Source of the DNA: Bdellovibrionota bacterium
GTDB lineage: Bacteria > Bdellovibrionota_G > JALEGL01 > DATDPG01
Direction of reading: 5' to 3'
Assembly (NCBI GenBank): GCA_035292885.1
Contig: DATDPG010000019.1
Location: 59,570-123,569, forward strand
DNA: 64,000 nucleotides
The notes under the pieces were generated by a model. The model saw only the letters and a program-made list of their open reading frames with translations, made no database searches and was not told the origin of the DNA. Shown here piece after piece: positions 16,911 through 52,660 of this stretch. Position 1 is the stretch's first letter, and each line of letters begins with the position of its first letter. Both the position numbers and the translations under genes were made by a program.

Positions 16911-16939
16911 GGCGGAGCGGACAGGAGACCTGAAACGAC

Positions 16940-20131: not shown

Positions 20132-20132
20132 C

Positions 20133-21485: not shown

Positions 21486-21715
21486 CGAAAAAGAAAATTC
21501 TTTTTTTCAGCCAGCTCGTCTCTCTGGCGGGGATCTGGGTCTTCGTCTTGGGAATCAGCGTCTGGATTCTCCATCTCATCCGGATGGCCAACAAGCTTCA
21601 TGACGCTCCGACGGCGTCCGTATCGATCAGCCTGGTGGCCATTCCCGTCTTTCTCACAGGCGCGAGCGTGCTGACATATGTCTTCGTCGGCATACAGAGA
21701 GGTGGAAAGGAATAA
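21482..21715 (+). CDS. small two-TM membrane protein, translationally coupled (ActD-like position)
   Basis: ATGA overlap with the NrfD stop. 77 aa with two hydrophobic helices. Confidence 0.45.
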   Translation: MTKKKILFFSQLVSLAGIWVFVLGISVWILHLIRMANKLHDAPTASVSISLVAIPVFLTGASVLTYVFVGIQRGGKE

Positions 21716-21719
21716 TGCG

Positions 21720-30256: not shown

Positions 30257-30269
30257 TCAGAGGTGTTTA

Positions 30270-31850
30270 CTACGCCGCCTCGGCGAAGTCGACCGGCTGG
30301 CGATGAAGCGACCACCACTCCCTCGCCTGATTCTGCGTCCAGAGTCTGTTGGGTTCACAGGTTTCAAGCGCACCGAGGAACTCGTCCATATTTTGAAAGC
30401 GATCTTCGGGCTTCTTGGCCAGACACCGAAGAACGAACCGGTCCAACGCTTCGGGAATGGCGATCTCGGAGAGTTCGGAAGGTGGTTTAGGGTCGGTCTT
30501 GGCGTGATCGACGAGAAGCTCGACGTTGGACGACGCGGCAAAAAGCGGCTGTCCCGTGAGCAACCAGAAGGTCACCGCTCCCAGATTATAGATATCGGCA
30601 CGATGATCCACTTTCGATGAGCCGTACACCATCTCCGGCGCGATGTACCGAGGGGTCCCGAAAATCACTCCGGTCTTCGTCAAGTGGGAGGCTCCGTCAA
30701 TTTTCATCTCTTTGGCCAGACCGAAATCCAGAACCTTTACGAAATCGTAAATGCCACCCCGTTCCGTCAGAAAAATATTCGCCGGCTTGATATCGCGGTG
30801 AATGATGTCCTTGTTGTGAGCTTCACCGAGCGAGCCGGCGACCTGACGGAGAATATGAATGGTACGAGCGGCCGGCAGGGGACCGTATTTCTCGACGATC
30901 TCCTGAAGGTTTAGGCCGTCCAGGAACTCCATCACGTAAAAAAATTTGTTGTCGTCCGTCCGTCCGAAATCATAAATTGAAATCGTATTGGGATGACTGA
31001 GTGTCGAGGCCAGTTGAACCTCCCGTTCGAAACGTTGGATCGCCGCTCCGGAATCGTCGTCGCCCGGCACAAGCATCTTTAATGCGGTCGGCCGGTGCAT
31101 CATGGCGTGATGGGCGATATAGACCTTTCCCATGCCGCCGCTCCCGATCTCTTTTTCCAGGATGTAATTGCCGACTTGCTTCGCTTGATGGAGGTCCTTT
31201 CGCATGTTGTAAAGCGTCTTTGTGACCAGAGCCGAGACAAGACCATATATCGCGATTTGAATCGCTTGCGCCGGTGTGGCTCCGACCATCGCGTCGTATC
31301 CTCCACGCGTCTCCCAAAAGGTTTGGACGGAAGGGAACCAGAGATAGGACAAGAATCGCATGACGACGAAACCGAGTGTTGCCCAAACGCCCATGCTGAT
31401 CTGGCAACTCAAGAGACAGGGAACAAATGCCGCGTGTACGAAAAGTATCAATGAAATCGGAAAAAGTGGAGCCTCGGCCGGAAATGCGATGGCCCCAACC
31501 CACGTAGCCAGCAAAAGGTTGAAATGGAATACAACGTTATCGATCGTGCGGAGGGTCCCCGCTCGCCAATCCTTCAAGGAACGTAGAAAAAGCAGTGCTC
31601 CGGCAAAAGAAGCGGCATGAATCCATTTGGAAATCAGAACCCAATTCGGCGCGATCACACTTTCCCATTGAACCGGGCCCCACAAGTATTTTGTAATAAC
31701 CCAGCCGATCACACTGAGCGTCAGGCCCAAATAGGAGACGAGAATCAGGCGCTGATGAAGAAGCCCGCACCTCTCCTTCTGAAACGAGTCGCTCGTCTGG
31801 GCGGGCGACGGTTCCTTTTTCTTACAGCAAAGGGGCATCGTGATCGGCAT
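30270..31850 (-). CDS. Ser/Thr protein kinase with N-terminal polytopic membrane domain (paralog of 26428..28017)
   Basis: Same architecture and extensive identity with the other kinase (GSGGMGKVY, HRDIKPANIFL, DFGLAKE, GTPRYIAPE, and an AQAREWW C-terminus shared by both). Confidence 0.8.
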   Translation of the reverse strand: MPITMPLCCKKKEPSPAQTSDSFQKERCGLLHQRLILVSYLGLTLSVIGWVITKYLWGPVQWESVIAPNWVLISKWIHAASFAGALLFLRSLKDWRAGTLRTIDNVVFHFNLLLATWVGAIAFPAEAPLFPISLILFVHAAFVPCLLSCQISMGVWATLGFVVMRFLSYLWFPSVQTFWETRGGYDAMVGATPAQAIQIAIYGLVSALVTKTLYNMRKDLHQAKQVGNYILEKEIGSGGMGKVYIAHHAMMHRPTALKMLVPGDDDSGAAIQRFEREVQLASTLSHPNTISIYDFGRTDDNKFFYVMEFLDGLNLQEIVEKYGPLPAARTIHILRQVAGSLGEAHNKDIIHRDIKPANIFLTERGGIYDFVKVLDFGLAKEMKIDGASHLTKTGVIFGTPRYIAPEMVYGSSKVDHRADIYNLGAVTFWLLTGQPLFAASSNVELLVDHAKTDPKPPSELSEIAIPEALDRFVLRCLAKKPEDRFQNMDEFLGALETCEPNRLWTQNQAREWWSLHRQPVDFAEAA

Positions 31851-37129: not shown

Positions 37130-38365
37130 CTACGGTAAGTGCTTCGCATTCGGACTCGCCGGAGCCAGGCTCGTCAGAAACGCATAGAGATCCGCCATCT
37201 CCCGGCCCGTCAGTTTGGGCCACTTCAAGTGTTGCTCGGTATGCTTCTCTTGCATCTCGGTGGAGTGGTTCCACATCGCCGCGACCATGCCCATGGGGGA
37301 GTTCAATTTGCTGATGGCGGCGAAATCTTTCGCCGCGTTTCGTCCCTTGCCGTTTAAGGAGTGGCACGTCAGGCATTCTCGGTCCCTAACGAGATTCTCC
37401 CCTGTGGCGGGGCTCCCCGGTGCGTCCTCCAGTTTCATGCTGTAGAGATACGCGATGACGTGCGCCATCTCCCCCTCCTTGAAATCCGGGAACGTGAGTT
37501 TCTTTTCTTTCATCATCTCCCACATGGCGGGGCCGTGATTCCACATCTTGGCCGCGATCTCGGTCACGGGATAGTTGAAATCGACCTCAGCGAAATCGGG
37601 CGCCGTGGTTGGTGGTTTGGCACGGAACGAATGGCAATGCATGCACCCTTTTTCGGTCAAGAGTTCCTTCCCCTTTGAGGGATCGCCGAGGTCATAGTCG
37701 CTGGCCGGGAAGACGGTCGGGGCCATATACGAACGGATTCCGGCGGCCAGGGCGTCCATCTCGTCCTCTTCGATGACGGGCCGATCGATCTTGTACTTCT
37801 CAAAAAGCGCCAGCATTTTCGGGCCATGGTTCCACATCGCTTCCGCCAGTCGGATGGGGGAGATGTATTCCTTTTTCGCGCTGATGTCGGGAGCGATTCG
37901 GGCGCCTTCCCCTCCAAATTGATGACAAGAGAAGCATCCCTTTTCCTTCAGCACCTTTCTTCCCATCGATTCCCTCACCGGTTCCGCCATGTACCGGATG
38001 AAAGAGAGATAGCGAACCAGCTCGGACATCTCCTTCGGCGTGAACTTCGGAAAGGCATACCCTTTGGTCTCGATCTTCTTCGCCATTCTCGGAAGGTGAT
38101 TCCACATGACGGAAGAAAGCTCGAGGTATGTACCGTAAAACTTGCGGTTGCCCAGGTCGGGACCGCCGCGGCCCCCCCTCCCGTACACGGAATGGCACTG
38201 CGCGCATCCCTTCTGATGGAAGACTTCCCGACCCGGCCACGGTGAGGCCGAAGTGGCTGCTTCCTGCGCCCGAAGGGCGAAAATGGAGCCGGATGACATC
38301 AGGAGATACGCGAGAATGAATTGCAGGAGGCGGATGCAGTTTCTCCGGGTAGTGGACATAGTCAC
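37130..38365 (-). CDS. tetraheme cytochrome c of four class-I domains (paralog of 21720..22931)
   Basis: Signal peptide. Four CxxCH motifs, each with a GPD and a downstream MWNH motif. Confidence 0.75.
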   Translation of the reverse strand: MTMSTTRRNCIRLLQFILAYLLMSSGSIFALRAQEAATSASPWPGREVFHQKGCAQCHSVYGRGGRGGPDLGNRKFYGTYLELSSVMWNHLPRMAKKIETKGYAFPKFTPKEMSELVRYLSFIRYMAEPVRESMGRKVLKEKGCFSCHQFGGEGARIAPDISAKKEYISPIRLAEAMWNHGPKMLALFEKYKIDRPVIEEDEMDALAAGIRSYMAPTVFPASDYDLGDPSKGKELLTEKGCMHCHSFRAKPPTTAPDFAEVDFNYPVTEIAAKMWNHGPAMWEMMKEKKLTFPDFKEGEMAHVIAYLYSMKLEDAPGSPATGENLVRDRECLTCHSLNGKGRNAAKDFAAISKLNSPMGMVAAMWNHSTEMQEKHTEQHLKWPKLTGREMADLYAFLTSLAPASPNAKHLP

Positions 38366-38828: not shown

Positions 38829-39257
38829 TCATTCTTTGAAGGGATTGAGGATTCGCAAGTCCTCTACGTGAAAACCATGCTGCAGGTCTTCGGTATAGAG
38901 CGCGTCACAATTCGAGGCCAGTGCCTGAGCCACAATGGCCGCATCCCAGAAAGACCAGCGATAACGATGCCGAAGGCGACACGCGTGGACGAAGATTTCC
39001 TGAGTTGTCACGACCGGGTCCCATGAAAAGTAACTACGACAGACATCGACGGCATCCTCGAAGGAAAGAGGTTTCGGGATCTTGGTCGCGACCGTGACGA
39101 GAAATTCCTGCAACACCTGCAGGCTCGTCGCAGCCGATTGGTTTTCCCAATGGGCCTTTACGAGATCCGAAGATCGATTTGATTTACCGGAATCACTTCG
39201 ATCATACGCATAGACGAGAATATTCGTGTCAAAGAAAGCGCGCCTATTTTCGGACAT
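38829..39257 (-). CDS. vapC: PIN-domain toxin (VapC)
   Basis: FFDTNILVY N-terminus and conserved acidic residues of the PIN fold. 142 aa. Confidence 0.7.
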   Translation of the reverse strand: MSENRRAFFDTNILVYAYDRSDSGKSNRSSDLVKAHWENQSAATSLQVLQEFLVTVATKIPKPLSFEDAVDVCRSYFSWDPVVTTQEIFVHACRLRHRYRWSFWDAAIVAQALASNCDALYTEDLQHGFHVEDLRILNPFKE

Positions 39258-39489
39258 GCAGGGCGTCCCTCGACCAGGTCACCTTTCCCACTTCATACAG
39301 GCCCTTCGCCATTCTTCGCATTTCCTTGCGAAACGCACGTTGATGAAGCGATTTCCGCGAAATGAGTTCGTGGGCGTATTTGGCAAGAAGCCTGGAGACA
39401 GACTGGTTGGCTTCGGCCGCGGCGATTCGGAGCTTTCGCAACAACGGGCGGGGGAGGGTCAACGTGATGTTTTCGAGATCTCTCTTCAT
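39244..39489 (-). CDS. vapB: ribbon-helix-helix antitoxin (VapB/CopG-like)
   Basis: MKRDLENITLTLPRPLLRKLRIAAAEANQSVSRLL RHH pattern. Overlaps the vapC start. Confidence 0.55.
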   Translation of the reverse strand: MKRDLENITLTLPRPLLRKLRIAAAEANQSVSRLLAKYAHELISRKSLHQRAFRKEMRRMAKGLYEVGKVTWSRDALHVRK

Positions 39490-39551
39490 TACACTATTAT
39501 CGTGTAACACGATTATCGTGTCAATGCCTCGACCGGGTGGTGCCAAGACAG

Positions 39552-40793
39552 TTACTTGCGCGGCGGAGGAAGCGAACGGATTTTGAGAGCCAGAGCGATG
39601 ACCAACAACGTGAGGAATATTGTGCTGATTCCGAGGCCGACTCGGCGGGTTTTGTTTTCGCGGAGAGCGGCTTTCCCCAAAGCGATGGCTTGATCCACAG
39701 CTTTTCGTCCCTCCGTGATCTTCGCCTCCACCCCCGGCATGGAAAAGGAGTGAATCTCGGTTCGTGCCTGAATCAACGCCTGCCGGGCATTTTGCATGCT
39801 GTCCTCGGCTTCGGTGACGTCCATTCCCTTGTCCCTCGCTTCTTCGATAATCTTCGAAGCTTCGGCCGAATAATTCTTCAAAGAGCCGATCATCTTGGAG
39901 AACGCCATGGCCACGGCGGCGCCTTTATCCCCCTCTTTGTGGCACTTGGCGCAGATCGCGCCTTGCTGCGTCCCGATCCGGTCATCTGAGATGTGAACGA
40001 TCAGATGATTGCCGTGGCAGGAAATGCATTCGCCGTAGGGATCCTTCTGCAGGGCTTTCGCCATGGGACTCTTGAGAAACAGCTCGGCGTTGTGGACGTG
40101 GCAGGAGCCGCAAATATGGGCGATGGATTTCAGTCCCGGCGGTGTGGCGCCGTGGTTGCCGTGACAATCGTTGCAGGCGGGAGCGCCCCGGACATCTCCT
40201 TTTTCAAGCAGAGCTTTCCCATGCACACTTTTCGCGTACTCGGCATAGACGGTCGTCGAGATCTTGTACGGCTTCATATATTCGGGGTCGGCGTGGCAAT
40301 GGGCGCACATCGTCGGCAGGTTCACCGCGTAAACCGGAGACTTCGCGTCGTTGACTTTCCGGATGTTGTGCACGCTGTGGCAGCTGACGCATTCGGCGAC
40401 TTTGGTGTCCCCCTGTTTCAGTTTCTTGCCGTGCTGGCTGGTCAGGTAGAGCTCATACTGATCGACCCGAAGCATCGGGTTGTATTTCTTCATGAAGACC
40501 GGGTTGCTGTGGCATTTCGCGCAAAGTTTCGGAATGTCCGCCCTCTTCGGCGCCCCTTTGAAGCCTTTCTTCGGGTCCATTGAGATATCTTGGTCGTCCG
40601 AGGTCGGATCTCCGCCGTGGCATTCGTTGCACCCGATTCCCGCCGTGGCGTGCACGTCATCCTTCCAGCGGGTGGAGGGCTCATCTTCCATCGACTGATG
40701 GCAGATAAGGCATTGGCCGCCGGGCAGCGCAGCAGCTTCTTCGGCGTATGCCGACGAAAGTACGTTCAGCAGAATGAATAAAATCCAACTCAT
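39552..40793 (-). CDS. membrane-anchored nonaheme c-type cytochrome (cytochrome c subunit of bc-type complex)
   Basis: Signal MSWILFILLNVLSSAYA. Nine CxxCH motifs. C-terminal TM helix (GLGISTIFLTLLVIALAL). The start overlaps the cytochrome b stop. Confidence 0.75.
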   Translation of the reverse strand: MSWILFILLNVLSSAYAEEAAALPGGQCLICHQSMEDEPSTRWKDDVHATAGIGCNECHGGDPTSDDQDISMDPKKGFKGAPKRADIPKLCAKCHSNPVFMKKYNPMLRVDQYELYLTSQHGKKLKQGDTKVAECVSCHSVHNIRKVNDAKSPVYAVNLPTMCAHCHADPEYMKPYKISTTVYAEYAKSVHGKALLEKGDVRGAPACNDCHGNHGATPPGLKSIAHICGSCHVHNAELFLKSPMAKALQKDPYGECISCHGNHLIVHISDDRIGTQQGAICAKCHKEGDKGAAVAMAFSKMIGSLKNYSAEASKIIEEARDKGMDVTEAEDSMQNARQALIQARTEIHSFSMPGVEAKITEGRKAVDQAIALGKAALRENKTRRVGLGISTIFLTLLVIALALKIRSLPPPRK

Positions 40794-41881
40794 GCGAGTA
40801 CGTGTCCGGCGATGGTCATTCCTATAAAAAAAAGCAATAGCGCCATCCCGATGCCGCGGAGAATCTTTGTGGTCGATTTCTTTTTTCCGCAGTCGATCCA
40901 TGGAATAAGCAGCCAAAACACGCCGATCCCGCCGAAGATCATGTGTCCGACCAGCTCCCCGTCAATCGGCCCCACCTTGGCGGGCAAGAACTTGAGCGTC
41001 TGGAACATGAAAAGGAAATACCACTCCGGTTTGATTCCGGCCGGGGCGGAGGCGAAAGGATCGGCTTTCCTTCCCAGTTCCCAGGGGAAGAAGACCGCCA
41101 GGATCGCCAAAATATCGAGAATGATAAACCAAAGTAAAACGTCCCGGAGAAAGAAGTGCGGGAAAAACGGGATACTCTTCCGGTTTTCCGGGTGGCGTTT
41201 CCAATCTTCGGGCTCGTGCATTCCCTGGATCTGCACGAACAGCAAATGAATACCCAGAACGGAAGTGAAGATCGCCGGGAGGAGGGCGACATGCAAAGCG
41301 AAGAAGCGGGTCAGCGTAGAGCCGGTGACTTCTTCTCCGCCGCGGAGAACATGCATGAGGGTTTTCCCGATGTACGGCACGACGCCGATCATGTCGGTGC
41401 CGACCTTGGTGGCGAAGAAGGAAAGTTCGTTCCACGGCAGCAGGTAACCCGAAAACCCGAACGTCATGACGATTCCCAGAAGGGCGAGCCCCGTGACCCA
41501 GCTGAGTTCGCGGGGTTTCCTGTAAGCTCCCATGAAAAAGACGCTGAACATGTGGATGATGACGGCCAGGACCATCAAATTGGCCGACCAGCTGTGGATC
41601 GACCGGATCAGCCAGCCGAAAGGCACTTTCGATGTGATAAATTGAACGCTCTCGAAGGCCGCGTCGGCGCTCGCCTTGTAATAGAACATCAGGAGAATGC
41701 CGGTGGAGAGTTGGACGATGAAGAGAAAGAGGGAAACTCCGCCGAAGTAATACCAGATCGCGGTCTTTCCCATCGGCACTTCTTTGTGCCGCCCCCACTC
41801 AATCAGCTGTGCGATGGGATATCGGTCGGACAGCCATTCGATCGCGAGAGCGGCCCTACGCTTTAAGTGAGATGTAAACAT
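40790..41881 (-). CDS. cytochrome b (fused b6/subunit IV type)
   Basis: Conserved His-containing helices (WSANLMVLAVIIHMF, FFALHVALLPA). PEWYFL motif. Confidence 0.8.
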   Translation of the reverse strand: MFTSHLKRRAALAIEWLSDRYPIAQLIEWGRHKEVPMGKTAIWYYFGGVSLFLFIVQLSTGILLMFYYKASADAAFESVQFITSKVPFGWLIRSIHSWSANLMVLAVIIHMFSVFFMGAYRKPRELSWVTGLALLGIVMTFGFSGYLLPWNELSFFATKVGTDMIGVVPYIGKTLMHVLRGGEEVTGSTLTRFFALHVALLPAIFTSVLGIHLLFVQIQGMHEPEDWKRHPENRKSIPFFPHFFLRDVLLWFIILDILAILAVFFPWELGRKADPFASAPAGIKPEWYFLFMFQTLKFLPAKVGPIDGELVGHMIFGGIGVFWLLIPWIDCGKKKSTTKILRGIGMALLLFFIGMTIAGHVLA

Positions 41882-42308
41882 CTTCTCCCTGAACGTGGAC
41901 TTCGTACGTGTCGAGCGGGTGAGGCGGCGGGCCGGCCACATTGTTTCCGTTCAAATCGTATTGACCGTTGTGACAAGCGCACCAAATGCGCTCCATGTCG
42001 GGCCGGTACTGGACGATGCAGTCGAGGTGCGTGCATTTTCCCGTGAACGCGGCGAAACTGCCGTCCTTCTTGCGGACCAGCAGCGCCGGTTTGTTTCCGA
42101 ACTTGCAGATTTTCCCGCTGTTCGGGGGAATCTCGGAGACCGCAGCGACTTTCGCCGAAGAGACTTTGGCTTCGGTCTCCGCGACAGGAGTGAGGTAGCG
42201 AACGATCGGATAAAAGACGGACCCCACCCAGGCGAAACCGCTGGCCCCTAAAAGGGTGTTCAAGAATCCGCGTCGGGAGGTTTCGGTCGAGCTTCGAATC
42301 GGTTTCAT
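41856..42308 (-). CDS. Rieske [2Fe-2S] protein, TAT-exported
   Basis: SRRGFLNTLLGA twin-arginine signal. CTHLDC and CACHNGQY Rieske boxes. Confidence 0.85.
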   Translation of the reverse strand: MKPIRSSTETSRRGFLNTLLGASGFAWVGSVFYPIVRYLTPVAETEAKVSSAKVAAVSEIPPNSGKICKFGNKPALLVRKKDGSFAAFTGKCTHLDCIVQYRPDMERIWCACHNGQYDLNGNNVAGPPPHPLDTYEVHVQGEDVYISLKA

Positions 42309-42596: not shown

Positions 42597-43094
42597 TTAG
42601 GCACTTTCTTGCCCTGTAAGTTTTCTCAATTCCGCTGCGTCGAAAAGGTCCTTGTCTCTGCCGGCTCTGTCCTTCATTTCAATCAGGTCCATTTTGCCGA
42701 TCACTCTAATTTTAATTCCAAAGGCATCGACCAACAATTGCCTGCCCGCAAGTTCCTGAAATGGCTTGGGTTCTTGTGAAAAGACATCGATGACTTCAAA
42801 TGGATTTCCCGGGTGAATGAAAGAGAAAACCATCATTCCCTTTTCCTCTATCCATTCTTTGCGTTTATGCGCATCGGCGAAATCTTTTGCATCAACCGGC
42901 AGGCGGGGCTTGAAACCAAGATGCGAGACCATTTCTACAAATGCCAGGACATTTTTGCGCTCAAGGTGCACGATGAGATCAAGATCCACGGTCGCTCGTT
43001 GGACCTGATGAAAATTCACGGCGAATCCGCCTGCGACGAGATACTCGATTTTTCTTCGGTCAAGCTCAATGAAAAGTTCTTTGTACGGAACCAT
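42597..43094 (-). CDS. nucleotidyltransferase-fold protein (uncharacterised), inserted inside respiratory gene cluster
   Basis: YLVAGGFAVNFHQVQRATVDLDLIV NTase-type motif. 165 aa. Confidence 0.4.
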   Translation of the reverse strand: MVPYKELFIELDRRKIEYLVAGGFAVNFHQVQRATVDLDLIVHLERKNVLAFVEMVSHLGFKPRLPVDAKDFADAHKRKEWIEEKGMMVFSFIHPGNPFEVIDVFSQEPKPFQELAGRQLLVDAFGIKIRVIGKMDLIEMKDRAGRDKDLFDAAELRKLTGQESA

Positions 43095-43236: not shown

Positions 43237-45168
43237 TTAAGGGTTGGGGCGATCGAGTTCGCGCGGATGATCCCGTTCCATTTCATGGCGGGTCACTTTG
43301 CCCGTGAGCCACGTTACGTTCATCGGATATTCATCCGGATGGAATATCACGAAGAAGAGGTGCCACACGAGAATGGCCAGCGTCGCCAGCCACGCCTCAA
43401 AATAGTGAATCAACTCCGCCAGCGGGATGCCCCAAACGGGAAGGAATCTTGAAAACAGTTCTGGAAACCAGAGCGCAAAGCCCGTGACCGACATCACGAT
43501 CGTTCCCCAAATGAGCGCCCAATATTCCGCCTTGTGAATGTACGTGTACCGGCCGAGCTTCGGTGCCGTGGCTGCGCGCGCCCGGACGAGTTTAACGTAA
43601 TAAAAGATGTTGGCCGATAAATCCCGGACATCCGTGAGACGCGGAAGAAGCTCCCGAATCTCCTTTCGGCCCTGACGTGTGAAGATCGAATGGAAAATGT
43701 GAAGGACTCCCGCGCTTAACATGATCACCGCGCTGGTACGATGGATGACGCCGCGAGCGTGTTCACCCAAATGAACCCAATCCAAAATCACCGTCCAGCC
43801 GGCGCGAGAAAAATGAAGCGCGAAGCCGGTGATGACAAGCGTCGTAAAGCTCACCAGGAGCAGGCCGTGAGCCACGAGCTGAATCGTTGTGAATCGGGTG
43901 TAGACGACTTCTTCCCGGTGTGAGCGGATCTTTTTCACGACGGCCGCTGCATAAATGAGCAAGTTATGAAGAAGCATCAGGCCGATCGTGCTGACAATCA
44001 TCCAGAGATAGAGAATGCGAACCCAGTAGAGAATGGGGCTGGCTGTCGGAGAGGTGTCCAAGTGCACGGGAACGCGGCTGAACGCCTGCGTTGCATCGGG
44101 GTGGCACTTGCCGCAGGTCTTGGCCAGGTTGTCCGGATGAATCGAGGAGCGGGTATCGGAAGAGGGGAGAATCCGGTGCGTTTCATGGCAGCTGGAACAG
44201 TTTGCGACGGTGACCGAGCCGCGCCGGACGGCCATGCCATGATAACTCTGCATGTACGTTGAAAGCCGTTGAATTGAAAATCCGTATCGCTGGGCCAGAG
44301 TAAGATCGGAATGACAGTGGCCGCACGTCTTCGTTGTCAGCTGTGCAGGCGACACAGGCGATTCAGGCGATTTCGTGTCGACGATGGCGTGTTCGCCGTG
44401 GCAGTCCGTGCAGGCGGGGGCGTCCGTAATCCCGCGAGCGACGGCCTGTCCGTGCACGGAGACCTTATAATCTTCTAAGATATCGCTGTGGCATCTTCCA
44501 CATGTTGCGGGAATTTGTTTCTTCGAAACCGCGGACATCATTTCACGTCCCGGCTGGATCGTGTGATAGCCGTGACAGTCGGTACAGACGGCGGCTTTCA
44601 GATTACCAGCCGCAATGGCACGACCGTGGACGCTGTTTTTATACGCGCCGACAGGGTCGGACACGGGGATGTCGTATTTCTTGGCGAGTTTGATGTCGGC
44701 GTGACACTTGGCGCACAAAGCGGGGACGTTGGCTTTGCTGTGTCTCGCGGTTTCGCTGGTGAACGGCTGAATCAAATGCGCGTCGCCGTGGCAATCGACA
44801 CAAGAAGGCGCATCTGAAATCCCATTGTTCTTTGCAGTGCCGTGCGTGCTGCCGCGGTACTCCTTTTCGGCATCTTCATGACAGCTTCCGCAATTTACTT
44901 TTTGTGGAGCTTCCTCATGCTCGCCGAAGGGCCCGCCGGCGTGGCAGTCGGTGCAGGCTAGTTCGCCGTGGACGGAAGCCTTGAAAACTTTGGGATCCAC
45001 GACGTCATGGCAATCAACACACTTTTTCGGATCGATTCGGTTCGCGGCAAAAACCGACGAAATCGCAAACATTGCGCAGCCGACGAATGCCAAGCCCGAT
45101 TTTGTAAAGGGAACCCCGGTCGGTTTCAAAAATTGGACACTCATCCGATGAAAACGCCCGCCAAGCAT
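43237..45168 (-). CDS. 11-heme c-type cytochrome fused to a C-terminal b-type di-heme membrane domain (CbcL-like quinol oxidoreductase)
   Basis: Eleven CxxCH motifs in the N-terminal 380 aa. C-terminal 260 aa with about 5 TM helices and conserved His (HydC/FdnI-like). A possible alternative start at 45144 (MSVQFLK) gives a signal peptide. Confidence 0.75.
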   Translation of the reverse strand: MLGGRFHRMSVQFLKPTGVPFTKSGLAFVGCAMFAISSVFAANRIDPKKCVDCHDVVDPKVFKASVHGELACTDCHAGGPFGEHEEAPQKVNCGSCHEDAEKEYRGSTHGTAKNNGISDAPSCVDCHGDAHLIQPFTSETARHSKANVPALCAKCHADIKLAKKYDIPVSDPVGAYKNSVHGRAIAAGNLKAAVCTDCHGYHTIQPGREMMSAVSKKQIPATCGRCHSDILEDYKVSVHGQAVARGITDAPACTDCHGEHAIVDTKSPESPVSPAQLTTKTCGHCHSDLTLAQRYGFSIQRLSTYMQSYHGMAVRRGSVTVANCSSCHETHRILPSSDTRSSIHPDNLAKTCGKCHPDATQAFSRVPVHLDTSPTASPILYWVRILYLWMIVSTIGLMLLHNLLIYAAAVVKKIRSHREEVVYTRFTTIQLVAHGLLLVSFTTLVITGFALHFSRAGWTVILDWVHLGEHARGVIHRTSAVIMLSAGVLHIFHSIFTRQGRKEIRELLPRLTDVRDLSANIFYYVKLVRARAATAPKLGRYTYIHKAEYWALIWGTIVMSVTGFALWFPELFSRFLPVWGIPLAELIHYFEAWLATLAILVWHLFFVIFHPDEYPMNVTWLTGKVTRHEMERDHPRELDRPNP

Positions 45169-45213
45169 ATCTCAGCTTGGCGGGCGCCGAAACATGAACT
45201 CATTCTGAGCCTG

Positions 45214-45644: not shown

Positions 45645-45686
45645 TCAATGAAATGAAAAGAGGGCCGGCCCGTATGGGCCGGCCCC
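45645..45686 (-). terminator. intrinsic terminator after the outer-membrane cytochrome gene
   Basis: gggccggccc-gtat-gggccggccc GC hairpin followed on the minus strand by a T-rich run. Confidence 0.5.
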
Positions 45687-45719: not shown

Positions 45720-48700
45720 TTAACGCAACGTCGCGTTCGGAACCGCCACGCCGGTGATTACCTTATACGTCCCTTGGAGGACGCCGACCTCGTATCCGGC
45801 GTTATGGACGCCCATGCTGCCGTCTCGAACCACCAGATTGTGGTTCCAGATCGCCCGGCGGATCTTGTCGGATCGGGCCCACTTGAAGGCCCCGCCGGCG
45901 GGATAGACGCTAACGCCGGGGTTGCAGTCCGCGGCGTTCGTGCAGGCCGTAGTAAGGTCGTTGTCGCACTTGCCGGCAATGTACGCCCCGCACGTGCTGA
46001 GGCACTTGTCGTGCGTCGGCGTCGGATCCAAAGGATCGACCGTACCACACGAGATGGTCGTATCTTCTTTGCACCGGTTCTTGCTCGAACCCGAGGTATT
46101 GCACGGACGCGCATCCGCGCCTGCACCGTTGAAGTTCGAGTAACCCAGAGCGTCCGGAACGATGCAGTCGTTGTCCGTGGAACACTCGATCTCATCCGTA
46201 CTCCCGGCGGTGGACCTCGGTTTTGCGATGGTGCACTTGTTGGTCGCAGTGACACAGGGGCCGAAGTACATCGTCCCCGTCGTCGCAATTTTGCAGTCCT
46301 CGTCCTTGGAGCAACTATAGGCCGAACGTTGATCACACTTTCCGGCTGTGATCGTCCCGCACGGTCCGTAGTTCGTCGCTGATACGGTCGTCACATTCAC
46401 CTTCTTCAGGTTGCATCCGGCATCCGAAGTGCAGAATTGAGCGTCGGCCACAATCGTAGTACTTGCTGCCGAGCAAGTCTTGACCGCGTCGCAACTCGTG
46501 TCACCAGCCGCCGTGCAACTGATGTAGGGCGCCAGCGTACACTTCTTGTTTGCGTTGCAGTCACCCGCGTCCAGTGTAGTGACACTGCACGTTCCCAGGT
46601 TCACGTCGTCGTACGCTTTGATGGCGTCCGACAAGAGGAGCGCAAGCCCCGTGACTTCGTCCTGGATCCCCTCGATCGTCCCATCGCCGTCGTAATCGCC
46701 GCGAGCCTCACGGTTAATCTCCGTGAGATCCGTGTGACATGGCGTGCACGCGCTGATGTTCGCGAGCTCACCCGCTTCACCGGCTACGGTCTCCTCTTCC
46801 TCGGCACCGACTAGATGGCCGACGCCGTGACCGCTCATAATGTTGAAAGAGTGACCGCCCAAGTGGCGGAACCCATCCTCCGTCGCATCCGGCCCCTCGG
46901 CCATGTGGCACGTGAGGCACTTCCGGTTCTCCGTCGGCAATGTCGGGTCACCCGAAACATCCGCCAGAATAAATCCCGGCTCGGAATGGAACGAATTCCC
47001 CGTTGTGAAGACATCGTCGATTCCGTTTTTGTCGAGGTCGAGAAGAGCCCCCTTTCCTTCGAGAACGGGAGCCTGCGGATTGTAGTGGACCTGTCGCGTG
47101 TAATAGTCCGCGTTTTGCTCCAACGTCTCGCAGAGCGTATCTGAAACGCCGTCGCGATTCGTGTCGCACGAAAACTCTCCGAAACTGTAGAGGCCGTCGT
47201 GGCACTTGTAACAAACGGCCGCCTTCCCGGCATCCACTGTCGATTCGTCGATGATCATCTCGAGCTCTCCGTGCATTCGAAGCTGGTCCTCGTTTGTCGC
47301 GTCGTGCGGGTCATGACACCCAGCGCACCCGATACCGACGAAAGCCTCCTGTTCCGTGATCGGCGTGAGGGCTTCCTCGCCCCCCTCCACATAATTGATG
47401 AAGCCCTTGGAGGTATGGCAGCGTGTACAGGCTGCGTTCGTGAGCCATGAAACCTGATAGCTGGCGGAGCCGTGCGAGACGCCGGTCATGTTGTGCGAGG
47501 AGTTGATCCATTCGGCCTCTTGCGTATGACACTGGCCGCAGATACCGGTCTGAGAAGCGGAGACACCGATCTTCGTGGCGTCGCCGTTGTGTCCCGAACC
47601 CGGGCCATGGCAATTCTCACACTGAACACCGCTTAGAGCGGCCACGGAAGGCGCATCCGCCAAGAAATCGGCGTATGTGCCCGGCTGGGTGGAAACGTCA
47701 AAGCCGGTCGAGGCCACGGCCTCGTCAAATCCGCCGTTTGCGGCGGACGTATTGTAACCGACCGTTTCAAAGCCCCACAGATAGGGCTCGGGTGCCAGCG
47801 ATGACATGGCCAGATACGAATTTTCGTAGAGCTTTGAGTGATTTGTTCCCTGCCACTCGCCGACTTTGTCCGGCATCGCCGAACCGTCATGGCATCCGGC
47901 GCACTCGGGCCTCGCCGCGTCGCCGGTGATACTTCCGATGCCTACATACGTCCCGGCATACATCCGGAACGAACCCACGATCGTGCAATGATCCACGCCG
48001 CCGTCCGAGGTGTATTTACAATTGGGCGCGACACGGCCGCACGCCCGTACACCATCCGCATCGGGTCCCACAGCCGATTCATCGACCGTCGCCGTGTAGG
48101 CCACCGTGTAATACCCCTCGACATCCGGCGTGAACTTGGGGAGCTGAAGCGCTGAGGCTACGGTTCCGGAATCGGCAAAAACGGCTGCAGATCCATCCGG
48201 GGGTGTCAGCGTCCAAGACCAGTCATCGTTGATGGGCTTGGCGCGCCTCGTGGTCGGCGTGCTCGTCGAAGGCAACGAACCGTTACACGCTGTCGAAGTG
48301 GATGTGTACTCCAATATGACCGAACTGTTCGGTCCCTGCAGGTAGAGGGGAACATTCAGCGGAACGGTCCAAAGACCGCTCGACCGCTGAATCTCGGCAC
48401 CGGCGTCCTGAACATAGACCACCTGTGTCGTGCTGTCGCTGTTCCCGGCACCGTCGTCCACCGTCAACCTGAAATAGAGTTTCGTATCTTCGATCGAAAC
48501 AGGGAGCGGTTGCCACTTGTACTCATCACTTTGTCCGCCGTGCGCGGCGTTCTCCTCAGCTTCCCTCAAACCGACGGTCAGAAAATCCTTAAGCGCGGGA
48601 GCGGTGAACGGAAGAGTTGAGGACGTGCTCCCGGCCGTCGCGGTCGCGAAGGGGCCGGAGACCTGCTGCCAGCTGTAGTTCACGACACTTCCGCGGCTGT

Positions 48701-49163
48701 TTTCGCCGGAGAGAATTCCACCCGCGTCTTCCAAATCGATGGCCAGTTCATCCGTTCCGAATCGTGTGCGTGTGGTGATGGTGGAACCGGAACCGTTCGT
48801 GATGACCGCAAGAATCGTCTTGGCCGTGACGCTGACCGTGTCGGTGCTTTCGGCATCGTGGAGAGAGAGTTTCAACACGTACGTGCCGGCCGCGTCCGCG
48901 ACAAAGCTGGTCGCGATTTCGGAACCGCCCGTCAGAGCGGCGGAAGAACCGTCGGGTTTCGATTCAAGCGTCCATATAATATTGCCGACGACCGTGCTTC
49001 CGGAACCGTCCAAATTCACGGTGTCGCCGATCAGGACCTTCTGGTCCTCGCCTGCGTTAGCGGCGGCGGTCCCTTCCGGATCGTCGTCGCATGCCGAAAC
49101 ACTGATCGCCACGGCGGCAGCCGCGAGAAGATTGATCATCCAAAGTCCCTTCGTGCTTTTCAT
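45720..49163 (-). CDS. 1147-aa cell-surface multiheme (8 CxxCH) lipoprotein cytochrome with PKD/Ig-like N-terminal domains and Cys-rich C-terminal region (OmcB-like position)
   Basis: RBS gagggagag. Signal with lipobox ISVSAC. Eight CxxCH motifs between roughly residues 420 and 830. C-terminal region with dozens of Cys. Last gene of the porin-cytochrome operon. Confidence 0.7.
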   Translation of the reverse strand: MKSTKGLWMINLLAAAAVAISVSACDDDPEGTAAANAGEDQKVLIGDTVNLDGSGSTVVGNIIWTLESKPDGSSAALTGGSEIATSFVADAAGTYVLKLSLHDAESTDTVSVTAKTILAVITNGSGSTITTRTRFGTDELAIDLEDAGGILSGENSRGSVVNYSWQQVSGPFATATAGSTSSTLPFTAPALKDFLTVGLREAEENAAHGGQSDEYKWQPLPVSIEDTKLYFRLTVDDGAGNSDSTTQVVYVQDAGAEIQRSSGLWTVPLNVPLYLQGPNSSVILEYTSTSTACNGSLPSTSTPTTRRAKPINDDWSWTLTPPDGSAAVFADSGTVASALQLPKFTPDVEGYYTVAYTATVDESAVGPDADGVRACGRVAPNCKYTSDGGVDHCTIVGSFRMYAGTYVGIGSITGDAARPECAGCHDGSAMPDKVGEWQGTNHSKLYENSYLAMSSLAPEPYLWGFETVGYNTSAANGGFDEAVASTGFDVSTQPGTYADFLADAPSVAALSGVQCENCHGPGSGHNGDATKIGVSASQTGICGQCHTQEAEWINSSHNMTGVSHGSASYQVSWLTNAACTRCHTSKGFINYVEGGEEALTPITEQEAFVGIGCAGCHDPHDATNEDQLRMHGELEMIIDESTVDAGKAAVCYKCHDGLYSFGEFSCDTNRDGVSDTLCETLEQNADYYTRQVHYNPQAPVLEGKGALLDLDKNGIDDVFTTGNSFHSEPGFILADVSGDPTLPTENRKCLTCHMAEGPDATEDGFRHLGGHSFNIMSGHGVGHLVGAEEEETVAGEAGELANISACTPCHTDLTEINREARGDYDGDGTIEGIQDEVTGLALLLSDAIKAYDDVNLGTCSVTTLDAGDCNANKKCTLAPYISCTAAGDTSCDAVKTCSAASTTIVADAQFCTSDAGCNLKKVNVTTVSATNYGPCGTITAGKCDQRSAYSCSKDEDCKIATTGTMYFGPCVTATNKCTIAKPRSTAGSTDEIECSTDNDCIVPDALGYSNFNGAGADARPCNTSGSSKNRCKEDTTISCGTVDPLDPTPTHDKCLSTCGAYIAGKCDNDLTTACTNAADCNPGVSVYPAGGAFKWARSDKIRRAIWNHNLVVRDGSMGVHNAGYEVGVLQGTYKVITGVAVPNATLR

Positions 49164-49189
49164 GTTTTCTCTCCCTCTCATGAAAGTTC

Positions 49190-49849
49190 TTACTGCGTAT
49201 GACATATGATGCAAGCCTGTCCATTGTCCGGATGCCGAAGCGGCGTATGGCAGCCCCGGCAATCCGCGTTAGGTAGATGGTTGACGTTGCTCGGTCGCCT
49301 CGGCGTGGCCATGTGAGCCGAGCTCGTTTGGTGGCACACCACGCACCTCTGTGCCCCATACGATTCCAGCGGGTAATGACAGTTCAGGCAGTGCCGATTT
49401 TGGGACGCCCCGAACCCGGCCATGTGATCGATCGGCTTCGTTTCCATATGGCACCGCTGGCAGAAGTCGGTCCGGTGGCACGTCATGCACTGCGATCGGT
49501 CGAAGCCCACCTGGAGCGCATGGCCGCGGAGGCGGAAGAATTGGTTGTGATTCGCCGGCGGCGTGATCTGGTGGCATTCCGAGCAGCTGGACTGCGTGTG
49601 GCAGAGGTTGCAGCTGTTCTTCGTGTCGAACCTAAACCGCTGCACCAGCGCGCCGTGCTCATGCTTGAACGTCAAATCGTGCCAGGCCGGTTTCGTGTCT
49701 TTGGTCATCCCGCCTTCGTGACATTCCGAACAGTCGCTGTCTCGCGCAACATCCGGGTGCTCCCACGTTGTGCCTTCGTCGCACCCTTTGTTGCCGAGAA
49801 AAAATGGGACCGCGAGCATTATTGTTAAAACAGACAACGATCGTCTGAT
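49190..49849 (-). CDS. nonaheme periplasmic c-type cytochrome (OmaB-like; paralog of the heptaheme 13308..13937)
   Basis: Nine CxxCH motifs. Shares the SCxxCH..SSCxxCH and FCxRCH patterns with the heptaheme gene. The 5' end is uncertain because the ORF extension runs into the 119-bp palindrome. Confidence 0.7.
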   Translation of the reverse strand: MRRSLSVLTIMLAVPFFLGNKGCDEGTTWEHPDVARDSDCSECHEGGMTKDTKPAWHDLTFKHEHGALVQRFRFDTKNSCNLCHTQSSCSECHQITPPANHNQFFRLRGHALQVGFDRSQCMTCHRTDFCQRCHMETKPIDHMAGFGASQNRHCLNCHYPLESYGAQRCVVCHQTSSAHMATPRRPSNVNHLPNADCRGCHTPLRHPDNGQACIICHTQ

Positions 49850-49851
49850 GG

Positions 49852-49970
49852 GGTGCCAAGAAAATACGTTCGGGCTCCGGTCCCGACGGTACCCCCCAAG
49901 TCCATGCTCGAGACTGCGCGTGGACTTGGGTGTCCCCGTCGGGCCACCCGAACGTATTTTCTTGGCACCC
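49852..49970. repeat. 119-bp near-perfect palindrome between porin and nonaheme cytochrome genes
   Basis: Arms gggtgccaagaaaatacgttcggg (49852-49875) and cccgaacgtattttcttggcaccc (49947-49970) are exact reverse complements. Nested inner arms cccgacgg/ccgtcggg and aagtcca/tggactt. Starts 1 nt after the porin stop. Confidence 0.7.
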
Positions 49971-49971
49971 T

Positions 49972-51312
49972 TCAAAAGTTCCAAGCGACCCTCACATCCA
50001 ACGTATGGAAATTGTCCAGGTCACTGGTTTCAAATTCGTACCCGAGCCGCCCCTCAAAGTCTTTGAGAAACTTCACGGTTCCCCGCGCATAGTACGTTTG
50101 GACGTTGTCCGATTCGTTCCCGGCTAAAAGGTTATATCGATAGAGGTAGAAAGCTGTTCCGGCCGTCAGCCGCAGCTTCCGCTTCAACAGGTCTTGGGCG
50201 ATGGAGAAAGATGTCCCGTACGTATCGTTCTGAAGTTCGTTGTCCTGTCCCAAATAGTAATCGCCGGTTAACGAAAGGCTCATGCCGTCGAGCGGCCATT
50301 CGATCGTTGACCCCGTCAAAAAGAACCGCTGAAAACCGTGATTGAACGCACTGGCGACCTGCTCTTCAATCAAAATACGGAATGCATACCCCGCATCCAG
50401 GGCAAAATGCTCGCCGATCCCCTTCATCCCGGTGAAGGCCATTTCGTAATACGGTTTGTATTCCCCGGCGAACGAATACGGATCCAGATCGATCACGCGG
50501 ACACCGTACGACTCGAGGAGACTGAAGAAGTGAAACTGGAGAGAAAGGTTCTGTTCGATGAATCGGTACCGGGTGTCGAGGGCCAAGTCCCGGACTTGAT
50601 CCAAGAACGATGTAAACCTCGAGGAAATCATGAGCCCCGGCTGGGCGTCCCACCAAACGCTCAGGCCGAAGAGATCATCTTCGATGTCACCGACGTTCGC
50701 CCGGAAGCCGGTGAAGTCATCCTTCAAATGAACGTAATCGAAACGGGCCCGAACCACCTTGACCGGATCGATCTCAAACGCTCCGCCGGCGACAAAATCG
50801 CCGCTGTCGGAACCGGTTTCCGTTTCGTAGAAATGGACCGGAACGCCGCCGTACGACATCAGCTTGAACCCTTTGGCTTCCCGCCACTGAAGGGAGAGGC
50901 CGTCGAAGTACAGCGACTCGAATTCCTGCCGGAACTGCCGTCCCGCGCGAAGCCGATCGAATACGCCGAGGTTGTTGGCGTCGAGGTAGGCGTGGTAGAT
51001 CCGCCCCGCGGCGCCGGTGTTGAAGGAGTCGTACACGCCATTGAACGTGGAATCCGAACTGTCGCCGTCCAGGTCGAAAATCCCGCCGGCCTGCAGGGAA
51101 ACCGCCACGCGGTCGTTCAAAGGCTCGCCCATGTTGAGCGAAAGAAGCGTTTCAAGATCCTGATCGCTGGTATCGGCGGTGGCGCGCAGTTTGTAACGGG
51201 TGCTGATGGAACCGAAAATATTGGAGTCTTCCGCGATCGCCGCATCGCAATAGACATACGCCCCAAAAAGGAGAAGCGTACATCCCAACCGACGGCGGCG
51301 AGAGGCGAGCAT
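49972..51312 (-). CDS. outer-membrane beta-barrel protein, candidate porin of the second porin-cytochrome conduit
   Basis: Signal MLASRRRRLGCTLLLFGAYVYCDAAIA. 446 aa. Amphipathic beta pattern. C-terminal VRVAWNF. Confidence 0.55.
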   Translation of the reverse strand: MLASRRRRLGCTLLLFGAYVYCDAAIAEDSNIFGSISTRYKLRATADTSDQDLETLLSLNMGEPLNDRVAVSLQAGGIFDLDGDSSDSTFNGVYDSFNTGAAGRIYHAYLDANNLGVFDRLRAGRQFRQEFESLYFDGLSLQWREAKGFKLMSYGGVPVHFYETETGSDSGDFVAGGAFEIDPVKVVRARFDYVHLKDDFTGFRANVGDIEDDLFGLSVWWDAQPGLMISSRFTSFLDQVRDLALDTRYRFIEQNLSLQFHFFSLLESYGVRVIDLDPYSFAGEYKPYYEMAFTGMKGIGEHFALDAGYAFRILIEEQVASAFNHGFQRFFLTGSTIEWPLDGMSLSLTGDYYLGQDNELQNDTYGTSFSIAQDLLKRKLRLTAGTAFYLYRYNLLAGNESDNVQTYYARGTVKFLKDFEGRLGYEFETSDLDNFHTLDVRVAWNF

Positions 51313-51973
51313 GATAAATCAACCTACAATGTGAATCGTCCCCATACGGATTCCATGACGTAAATCAAGTTGCTGAATATTTCTCAACTTCTTGATGATT
51401 CCAAGAATAATCTCACAATCAACGCGGGCAGCCGCAAAGGATCCAGAATTTCCTCTCTTGGCGGTTTCGACGAAATCCCGCGTGATGGCGGCAGGGAGCG
51501 GGTGGATTTTCGATACAGGCGGGCGAACCGCCGAGCGGGCAATCTTCGCGCAAAGCTGTGGAAAAAGGGTCTTCCGGCCGCATCAGCTGAAGAACGCCGT
51601 TGAAGGCGAAACCGTGCGTCGCCAAAACAACGACCTTTCCTTCTTTTTCGGCCATGCGGGTTCCCGGTTTCTCGAAAACTCATTATCACCGATCATCACG
51701 CCGAAGAATAGGACTGAAATCAGGATTGGAACGCTTGGACCGCCGACCAAAGGGCGAACCCGAAAAAAAGCGCCGCGGCCACCCATCGGACCCACTTCAT
51801 TTTGATCTTTTCGGCCATTCGGTCGCCCAAATAGACGGCCAGACCGCCAGCTCCGACGACCGGGCGGAATTCGTGCGTAGGAACGTCAACTCGTCCGATT
51901 TTCTCAAATCCGTACTCATTTGAGAGGCGTCGAAGGCTCTCATTGTGCTACTCTCCACTCGACGACGAATCCC

Positions 51974-52660
51974 ATGGGCCAGAACGAACGACGAATCCAC
52001 ACACGGCTTCAGCTGAGCGAGGAGGTCCGGGCCTCCACTCCCAAAGGCTTTCTGACAGGCTACCTCCGAGATGTCTCCAAAGGGGGCGCGGGAGTCGTCT
52101 TCGAAGAGAGCGTCGGGGATGTCGGGGAAACGATCGAGATTTTTCTCCCCTTCCCCGGCGGCGTGGAGATCGCCGTGATGGCGGAGATTGTCCGAATCCA
52201 AGAAACCCAGGGCGGTCTCTTGCACGGCCTCTGCTTCAGCCTCGTTGAACCTTCGATGCAGGAAAAACTTCTGACGCTCGTCGAGACCCTCCTCGCCGGA
52301 TCGGGGGGAAAGCGACGGGAGCACCCGCGCGTCTCCAAGAGAATTCCGATCCGCTACGGGAACCAGGCGGAGTTTCAAGCCGGCCTCCAAACGATCTCCA
52401 TGGGTGGGTTGTCGATGATGATCGACACTCCCGTGGTTCTCTTCCAAGAGGTCGAAGTCTCCATTCCGGACGTCAGCGGTCGCGAACTTCTCATCCTCCC
52501 CGCCCGGGTGATCTACCAGCACAACCTCGAGAAAAGTGGAAAGAAGCAGTATGAGGTCGGTCTTCAGTTCCGTGAACTGACGGGTCCGCAGAAGGCCTGC
52601 CTCGCCGAACTCCTCCGCTACGTGATGGATACACCGGCCGACGCCACAGGTTCCAAGTGA
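51974..52660 (+). CDS. tandem PilZ-domain protein (putative c-di-GMP receptor)
   Basis: RRIHTRLQL...DVSKGGAGV and RREHPRVSKRIP...TISMGGLSM motifs. Confidence 0.6.
   Translation: MGQNERRIHTRLQLSEEVRASTPKGFLTGYLRDVSKGGAGVVFEESVGDVGETIEIFLPFPGGVEIAVMAEIVRIQETQGGLLHGLCFSLVEPSMQEKLLTLVETLLAGSGGKRREHPRVSKRIPIRYGNQAEFQAGLQTISMGGLSMMIDTPVVLFQEVEVSIPDVSGRELLILPARVIYQHNLEKSGKKQYEVGLQFRELTGPQKACLAELLRYVMDTPADATGSK

Follow-up and report, generated by a model that had tools for sequence, protein, structure and literature searches.

Multihaem cytochromes of the CbcL/MtrH/MtoC family have been reported from 15 phyla and carry 3-23 haem motifs; they usually possess six transmembrane (TM) segments (five in four published homologues and four in one), and their genes often adjoin mtrAB/mtoAB or other cytochrome genes (Zhong & Shi 2018, PMC6295460). 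The family, whose members were recruited by BLAST at E < 0.01 to CbcL, takes in both Fe(III) reducers and Fe(II) oxidisers, and CbcL shares ~35% identity with MtoC/MtrH (PMC6295460). CbcL contains nine bis-His c haems and 10 conserved His residues, the apparent midpoint potential of its periplasmic domain being -194 mV (PMC9129911). CbcL proper is defined by function as a menaquinol oxidase needed for acceptors below about -0.1 V, a role shown genetically in Geobacter only (for the Geobacter literature, see PMC5322298). The model published for CbcL puts its quinone site on the cytoplasmic side of the membrane, with protons released inside and no energy conserved (bioRxiv 10.1101/2022.08.31.506072). 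Here we describe a CbcL/MtoC-type gene located on the minus strand of a 64,000-nt stretch (the window) of a Bdellovibrionota bacterium genome (GCA_035292885.1, contig DATDPG010000019.1, positions 59,570 to 123,569). Its product is an 11-haem bc cytochrome, and it is encoded beside a set of genes for an outer-membrane porin-cytochrome conduit.

Architecture of the 11-haem bc cytochrome

The gene product is probably an inner-membrane quinol/quinone:cytochrome c oxidoreductase of the CbcL/MtrH/MtoC family. Membership of the published family, judged from sequence, is confirmed; the likeness to MtoC/MtrH was judged by their published descriptions. CbcL (GSU0274) was compared through its orthologue in Geobacter hydrogenophilus DSM 13691 (L007:2828-4684, 618 aa), the CbcL of this species being >65% identical to GSU0274 (PMC9129911). 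The CbcL fragment FRDIKDVAGM, given in the supplement of the same paper, was converted into a degenerate DNA pattern, by which cbcL orthologues were obtained from three Desulfuromonadales genomes. In BLASTP, the protein and the G. hydrogenophilus orthologue share 32% identity over 558 aa (E = 6e-73), a level equal to that between CbcL and MtoC/MtrH (~35%). The aligned region covers the haem domain, a helix preceding the b domain (TM0) and the complete four-helix b domain, with all five TM His residues matching. The CbcL-like fusion proposed in an initial annotation of the gene thus holds for both domains. At least 6,987 clusters at 90% identity match the full-length protein; for the b domain alone, 2,033, 1,261 and 304 clusters at 50% identity were found at E-values of <=1e-3, <=1e-10 and <=1e-30, respectively.

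The intact open reading frame (ORF) extends over 43237-45168 and specifies 643 aa from ATG 45168, from which all residue numbers given here are counted. ATG 45144 (M9) is the likely start of the gene and is preferred because the upstream ATG sits in the loop of a hairpin with a 14-bp stem. The deposited protein, which comes from a 133-kb contig of a metagenome-assembled genome (MAG) and is named 'cytochrome c3 family protein [Bdellovibrionota bacterium]', is identical and also begins at M9 (635 aa). A Sec signal peptide is predicted from M9 onwards, and the haem c domain is therefore placed in the periplasm. In an AlphaFold2 model of the protein, the signal-peptide region contains a low-confidence helix (aa 27-39), and the peptide would presumably be cleaved. 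A lipoprotein reading (FVGC) was judged unlikely on inspection of the sequence, the hydrophobic stretch ahead of the Cys being too short.

Exactly 11 CxxCH motifs are present, as had been counted in the initial annotation, at aa 50, 72, 93, 123, 152, 195, 223, 253, 282, 324 and 352, against a chance expectation of ~0.003 per 643 aa (estimated from typical Cys and His frequencies). In a 59-sequence alignment, 10 of these motifs are invariant and the first is conserved at >=90%. No CX3CH, CX4CH or CXXCK variant occurs in the protein. The same alignment contains 11 non-motif His residues that are invariant or conserved at >=90% (H67, H84, H109, H131, H181, H202, H239, H260, H310, H331 and H369), and no Met column is found among its conserved columns. 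All 11 c haems therefore appear to be bis-His ligated, 11 additional His residues for 11 haems being the expected pattern, and each motif is presumably occupied by a haem. The two tetrahaem modules (residues 102-230 and 233-359) are tandem copies, their alignment score being 246 compared with 34 +/- 7 for shuffled sequences. Among the best 120 homologues, 105 have an odd haem count: 11 haems in 38 proteins, 13 in 24, 15 in 23, 17 in 14 and 19 in 6.

The AlphaFold2 model (59 sequences; mean predicted local distance difference test (pLDDT) score, 84.7; predicted template-modelling score (pTM), 0.72) contains five long helices: TM0 (378-413), TM1 (428-452), TM2 (469-496), TM3 (543-567) and TM4 (580-609). 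This agrees with the roughly five TM segments and conserved His residues noted in the initial annotation, and its assignment of the domain to the HydC/FdnI type is borne out by several searches. Pfam Ni_hydr_CYTB (PF01292) matches aa 425-611 with 37.9 bits (cut-off, 30.1). In Foldseek against the Protein Data Bank (PDB), FdnI (1kqf_C) is the only significant match (E = 2.9e-4, probability 1.00, TM-score 0.75 on the query), followed by the cytochrome b of Escherichia coli hydrogenase-1. In a PDB sequence search, FdnI ranks second (E = 1e-3) and is the sole membrane cytochrome b among the matches. None of the four ligand His residues, the possible lack of which had been raised at the outset, is missing: in 118 homologues whose C-terminus is complete, H434, H476, H588 and H603 never vary. 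By profile alignment, they correspond to H18, H57, H155 and H169 of FdnI, which we take from the Fdn-N structure to be the axial ligands of its two b haems, and their counterparts in the CbcL orthologue are H353, H396, H503 and H518. The N-terminus of the bundle is placed in the cytoplasm because loops 412-425 and 497-548 are basic; the predicted b-haem ligands are therefore H434 and H603 on the cytoplasm side and H476 and H588 on the periplasm side.

The cytoplasmic half of TM0 contains a His401-Asn402 pair without variation across the 119 aligned sequences, and the counterpart of His401 in the CbcL orthologue is H307. Candidate roles of this pair include a quinone pocket, a proton path or a haem contact. 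A conserved cytoplasmic motif, Y543-x-(E/H)545-K546-x-E548-Y-W, aligns with a cytoplasmic loop of FdnI that presumably forms the quinone (2-heptyl-4-hydroxyquinoline N-oxide, HQNO) site of that protein. Residue 545 (window 43534-43536) is Glu in 92% of the family and His in the present protein and four of its five closest relatives.

Several homologues have been named 'cytochrome b subunit of formate dehydrogenase' by JGI. The annotation proposed here, a CbcL/MtoC-type link from the quinone pool to the periplasm, replaces the database labels 'cytochrome c3 family protein' and 'formate dehydrogenase cytochrome b subunit'.

Neighbouring genes and their linkage in other genomes

The gene lies, as the initial annotation had stated, between a bc-type complex and porin-cytochrome genes: the latter are located upstream (45720-51312) and the former downstream (39552-42308), a 165-aa ORF intervening on the downstream side (Table 1). 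In the order of transcription, all on the minus strand, the barrel gene is followed by the genes for the 9-haem cytochrome, the lipoprotein cytochrome, the monohaem cytochrome c and the 11-haem bc cytochrome.

Table 1. Features of the 11-haem bc cytochrome gene and of its surroundings (window coordinates)
Feature	Position	Strand	Description
Outer-membrane beta-barrel, 446 aa	49972..51312	-	Signal peptide, C-terminal ...AWNF; uncharacterised family
9-haem cytochrome, probably periplasmic	49190..49984	-	True start probably near ORF aa 50-56, giving ~210-215 aa
Predicted surface lipoprotein multihaem cytochrome	45720..49163	-	~1147 aa from ATG 49163; lipobox VSAC, PKD-like domains, 8 CxxCH
Intrinsic-terminator-like hairpin	45651..45686	-	GGGGCCGGCCC-AUAC-GGGCCGGCCC then CUUUUCAUUU; between large cytochrome and monohaem c genes
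Monohaem class I cytochrome c, 124 aa	45214..45588	-	Signal peptide; GGAGGA ribosome-binding site
Terminator- or attenuator-like hairpin	45153..45188	-	14-bp GC-rich stem, then U-run; ends 8 nt before ATG 45144
CbcL/MtoC-type bc cytochrome gene	43237..45144	-	635 aa from ATG 45144 (M9)
Predicted Sec signal peptide, aa 9-42	45043..45144	-	Read from sequence: K/K n-region, hydrophobic core GLAFVGCAMFAISSVFA, then AN
11-haem c-type domain, aa 43-372	44053..45042	-	Three N-terminal haems and two tandem ~130-aa tetrahaem modules
Extra helix TM0, aa 378-413	43930..44037	-	Periplasm to cytoplasm; AlphaFold2 and alignment
FdnI/HydC-type dihaem cytochrome b domain, aa 425-611	43336..43896	-	TM1-TM4; Pfam, fold, conserved His
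165-aa ORF between bc cytochrome gene and Rieske/cytochrome b operon	42597-43094	-	No family match
Rieske/cytochrome b operon	39552..42308	-	Rieske, 41856-42308; cytochrome b6/subunit IV-type, 40790-41941; 9-haem membrane-anchored cytochrome, 39552-40793

The first three genes (the conduit trio) constitute a porin-cytochrome arrangement in the generic sense, i.e. a barrel, a periplasmic multihaem cytochrome and a surface multihaem lipoprotein. No Pfam, NCBIfam or PDB sequence match was obtained for the barrel, and all those of its 71 homologous clusters that bear a name are labelled 'hypothetical'. Its AlphaFold2 model (pLDDT, 88.1) has ~22 strands, and the Foldseek matches of the model are outer-membrane barrels such as AlgE, OccK and FimD. 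For the 9-haem protein, no Pfam or NCBIfam sequence match was found, and PDB sequence searches with the 9-haem and 8-haem proteins gave no match. Orthologues of the 9-haem cytochrome (217-233 aa) are present at the equivalent position in related loci, and those of the lipoprotein cytochrome (885-1053 aa) at the equivalent position in four loci (L001, L008, L012 and L013). The monohaem cytochrome c is a likely periplasmic partner of the 11-haem bc cytochrome. An MtoD-like identity of this protein is unsupported, since its match to 4xxl has an E-value of 0.4 and its best matches are generic class I cytochromes.

The Rieske/cytochrome b operon is a candidate second quinone module near the conduit. 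Its cytochrome b is of the fused b6/subunit IV type and scores 215.7 bits against the NCBIfam model of ExtP (cut-off, 290), the b-type cytochrome of the Geobacter selenite/tellurite reduction operon (NCBIfam NF040969). The stop codon of this cytochrome b gene overlaps the start of the 9-haem gene (ATGA).

The same five genes (barrel, cytochrome, PKD-cytochrome, monohaem c and CbcL-like) are found in the same order in MAG GCA_043809315.1 (L001), with 44-61% protein identity to those of the window and with gaps of <=28 nt from the barrel through the CbcL-like gene. In L001 and L003, the gene ahead of the CbcL-like one is a homologue of the monohaem cytochrome c gene (45% and 61% identity, respectively), and a similarly placed monohaem c gene was called on the P0004 contig. 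Besides the homologue in L001, two close homologues have the pair of monohaem c and CbcL-like genes alone on their contigs, and the genes around a third one and around a 15-haem relative are unrelated. A second CbcL-type paralogue (933-935 aa), located tail-to-tail with the 11-haem gene, is present in L001 (13876-16683) and L003 (2666-5467); that of L001 has 19 haems and a b domain (WTYWEKFDY motif, extra C-terminal helix) nearer to Geobacter CbcL. No second CbcL-type paralogue is present in the window, where the 165-aa ORF and the Rieske/cytochrome b operon occupy that side.

A survey based on the barrel yielded seven more loci (L008, L009, L011, L012, L013, L014 and the P0122 contig). The trio (barrel, ~225-aa cytochrome and PKD cytochrome) is kept in all seven, the middle gene not being called in its usual form in L011 and L014, and is thus a conserved module of an uncharacterised family. 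It is located beside a multihaem/4Fe-4S/NrfD module in L009, L013 and L014 and beside a Rieske/cytochrome b complex in L011 and L012, the latter locus also containing an aa3-type oxidase; no quinone module is found near the trio in L008 or on the P0122 contig. With the window included, a quinone-active module and a monohaem c gene are each found beside the trio in seven of nine loci. Ccm haem-maturation genes are also among the neighbours of the trio in the surveyed loci. These data suggest that the conduit trio is combined with interchangeable inner-membrane modules (CbcL-type, NrfCD-type and Rieske/cytochrome b) across genomes, a feature that may aid the prediction of electron-transfer wiring in metagenomes. 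The role of a dedicated entry point to the conduit, which the initial annotation had suggested for the 11-haem bc cytochrome, is plausible in a weaker form that draws on gene context: the five-gene order recurs in L001, but other close homologues lack conduit genes and the trio is combined elsewhere with other modules.

Both hairpins in Table 1 are GC-rich and followed by a U-run. That at 45153-45188 has a minimum free energy of -39.8 kcal/mol for an 86-nt stretch (z = -4.96), and that at 45651-45686 has a z-score of -3.6. Both speak against a simple operon of the conduit, monohaem c and 11-haem bc cytochrome genes. A scan for sigma-70-like promoters was uninformative, with none detected between the hairpins and the gene starts and three sites detected in 13.5 kb compared with 4.6 expected. 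Since too little room for a promoter is left after the hairpin at 45153-45188, the 11-haem bc cytochrome gene is probably expressed by read-through of this hairpin. Partial termination at the two hairpins might determine how strongly the flanking genes are expressed relative to one another.

A second cytochrome cluster, located at 13308-22931 of the window, is a candidate for another conduit equipped with a quinone module of its own. It contains genes for a 7-haem protein and a 409-aa barrel-like ORF on the minus strand and, on the plus strand, genes for 9-haem MtrC/F-like and 5-haem proteins, for a molybdopterin oxidoreductase of 834 aa that bears a twin-arginine signal, for an NrfD-type membrane subunit and for a protein containing four class I cytochrome c domains. 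The 409-aa ORF (13897-15126) shows no relationship to the barrel of 446 aa (E = 0.2). Each cytochrome cluster is followed by a small minus-strand ORF (22946-23512 and 42597-43094) with a similar N-terminal sequence pattern, the former matching DUF6036, a nucleotidyltransferase of unknown function. Four class I cytochrome c domains are also encoded at 37130-38365, and a PIN-domain (VapC-like) gene with a small upstream ORF (38829-39546, minus strand) lies between this gene and the 9-haem gene of the Rieske operon. The conduit trio is flanked by PIN genes in L013 as well, and in L014 such genes occur within ~6 kb of it. Elsewhere in the window (2357-3553, 6490-8175, 10412-12463, 26428-31850, 51920-52660 and 61690-63141), CDSs for NnrS, FeoB, three Ser/Thr protein kinases and a 2-hydroxyglutaryl-CoA dehydratase D-component were identified. 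One of the kinases is fused to PilZ, and a stand-alone PilZ protein is encoded next to the barrel gene. This content points to life under anaerobic or microaerobic conditions and to extensive signalling.

Electron flow and alternative functions

In the mechanism that we propose, the Sec signal would export the N-terminal domain, whose 11 bis-His c haems would serve as a periplasmic wire, and TM0 would bring the chain back to the cytoplasm, where the four-helix FdnI-type bundle would begin. This bundle would hold two b haems stacked across the membrane, with H434/H603 at the cytoplasmic and H476/H588 at the periplasmic side. By analogy with FdnI and the published CbcL model, the quinone site would be located at the cytoplasmic face beside the inner b haem and would contain the Y-x-E/H-K-x-E-Y-W loop and possibly His401-Asn402 of TM0. 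Menaquinol would be oxidised there, with protons released into the cytoplasm, and the electrons would cross via the two b haems into the 11-haem domain without energy being conserved. The membrane potential would presumably assist this outward movement, which would suit low-potential acceptors. From the 11-haem domain, electrons may pass to the monohaem cytochrome c and/or the 9-haem periplasmic cytochrome, then cross the 446-aa barrel and reach the 8-haem PKD lipoprotein cytochrome at the surface; these redox partners are putative. The direction of flow is not readable from the sequence, and we lean slightly towards an outward one.

Several observations weigh against this interpretation. The protein is no more than 32% identical to CbcL, whose sixth helix it lacks. 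Three of the four close homologues (61-64% identity) have no conduit genes on their short contigs, and the 15-haem relative is surrounded by unrelated genes. In the window itself, one terminator-like hairpin parts the conduit genes from the monohaem c gene, and another parts the latter from the 11-haem bc cytochrome gene. The side of the membrane on which the quinone site would lie is deduced by analogy. The partner cytochrome is of the class I type and may be of high potential, and related trios adjoin Rieske/cytochrome b complexes and, in one case, an aa3-type oxidase; both of these features fit an inward flow equally well.

The same architecture could indeed run inward, as an MtoC-like quinone reductase to which the conduit and the monohaem cytochrome c would deliver electrons from outside the cell, with Fe(II), a mineral, a cathode or a partner cell as the donor. 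MtoC from two Fe(II) oxidisers, Gallionella ES-2 and Dechloromonas RCB, is a member of the published family (PMC6295460), the monohaem class I c gene is located directly between the conduit genes and the 11-haem bc cytochrome gene, Rieske/cytochrome b complexes and, in L012, an aa3-type oxidase flank related trios as in the chains of iron oxidisers, and FeoB is encoded in the window. On the other hand, all 11 c haems seem to be bis-His, a ligation associated with low potential in CbcL, and with an FdnI-like quinone site at the cytoplasmic face an inward flow would work against the membrane potential and would need a strongly reducing donor. The monohaem cytochrome c is also not specifically MtoD-like (4xxl, E = 0.4), and no oxidase or carbon-fixation genes are present within the window. 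We regard inward flow as rather unlikely. Still less probable is a general periplasmic electron hub for soluble reductases and cytochromes, to which the adjacent conduit would be incidental. Many family members stand alone among unrelated genes (e.g. in L004 and L002), Geobacter cbcL has no cytochrome neighbours in L007, the terminator-like hairpins part the gene from those of the conduit, and most copies of the conduit trio have no CbcL-like neighbour. However, the five-gene order is kept between the window and L001 in spite of the 44-61% protein identity, with the short L001 gaps given above; the pair of monohaem c and CbcL-like genes is conserved; and the occurrence of a quinone module beside the trio in seven of nine loci argues for functional coupling.

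The JGI names of several homologues and weak matches to TIGR01583 and FdnI would be consistent with a membrane anchor (gamma subunit) of formate dehydrogenase or hydrogenase, but we consider this function extremely improbable. The scores obtained with the equivalog models TIGR01583, NF007558 and TIGR02125 (30.6, 18.2 and 16.9, respectively) are far below the cut-offs (115.85, 339 and 121.5), and no FdnG/FdnH or hydrogenase genes are adjacent; the reading as a formate dehydrogenase subunit was rejected on these grounds. Furthermore, the sole molybdopterin enzyme in the window is encoded 24 kb away with its own NrfD anchor, and the periplasmic partner is the covalently fused 11-haem domain. We retain a quinol/quinone:cytochrome c oxidoreductase as the preferred function.

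Bdellovibrionota is a phylum best known for predators. As a speculation to which we give rather little weight, the lineage bearing this label may carry a new type of conduit with interchangeable quinone modules. The 11-haem CbcL-type protein and the Rieske/cytochrome b complex would then act as low- and high-potential exits (or entries), resembling the CbcL/ImcH switch of Geobacter, and the His-Asn pair of TM0 would belong to a quinone or redox-sensing site.

Comparison with known systems

The conduit trio is more unusual than the 11-haem bc cytochrome itself. Its gene order, in which the barrel is followed by a periplasmic multihaem cytochrome and a lipoprotein multihaem cytochrome, resembles that of Geobacter Pcc (OmbB-OmaB-OmcB), and the 446-aa barrel is close in size to OmbB, which we take to be ~440 aa. 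The presence of a Rieske/ExtP-like cytochrome b module near the conduit is a further likeness to Ext/Pcc. No sequence-family link of the barrel or the cytochromes to components of Pcc, Ext or Mtr was obtained from the Pfam, NCBIfam and PDB searches, and in its make-up, in which the 446-aa barrel accompanies a 9-haem cytochrome and a lipoprotein cytochrome with PKD domains, the conduit does not appear MtrAB/MtoAB-like.

An ImcH-like reading of the 11-haem bc cytochrome was rejected by architecture, since its domain order is opposite to that of ImcH (N-terminal TM helices, NapC/NirT-like region and C-terminal haem domain, with CX3CH); its NapC/NirT score, 22.7, is below the threshold (24.1). The b domain shares the four-helix fold and the four ligand His residues with FdnI, the gamma subunit of E. 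coli formate dehydrogenase-N (1kqf chain C), and with HyaC/HydC. Considering the architecture of 1kqf, TM0 would take the role of the single anchor helix of FdnH. The partner of FdnI is an Fe-S/molybdopterin enzyme, whereas that of the present b domain is the fused multihaem cytochrome, and the working direction is likely the reverse of that of Fdn-N.

The genes for MtoC and MtrH in Gallionella ES-2, Dechloromonas RCB and Rhodoferax ferrireducens are clustered with an outer-membrane porin-cytochrome pair, like the gene described here, and the mto cluster of ES-2 includes the monohaem cytochrome MtoD, just as a monohaem c gene is included in the present gene string (PMC6295460; PMC5566968). The arrangement of the protein resembles that of CbcL, in which a signal is followed by a bis-His multihaem c domain, a TM0 with a conserved His and an FdnI-type four-helix dihaem b domain. 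Both also have the final tetrahaem module, whose haems are spaced 29/28/43/28 in CbcL compared with 30/29/42/28 in the present protein. The two proteins differ in the number of haems, 11 compared with nine (nine CxxCH motifs in the orthologue), and in the N-terminal part; the two extra haems are explained by the duplication of the tetrahaem module. They also differ at residue 545, where the present protein has His in place of the family Glu, and in the C-terminal sixth helix of CbcL, in place of which the present protein ends after five TM helices following the signal peptide, a number that falls within the variation described for the family (PMC6295460). Conduit genes adjoin the 11-haem gene, whereas cbcL in L007 has unrelated neighbours and no cytochrome genes beside it. 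The 11-haem bc cytochrome sits in a subfamily distinct from CbcL proper, within a family whose current understanding it leaves unchanged.

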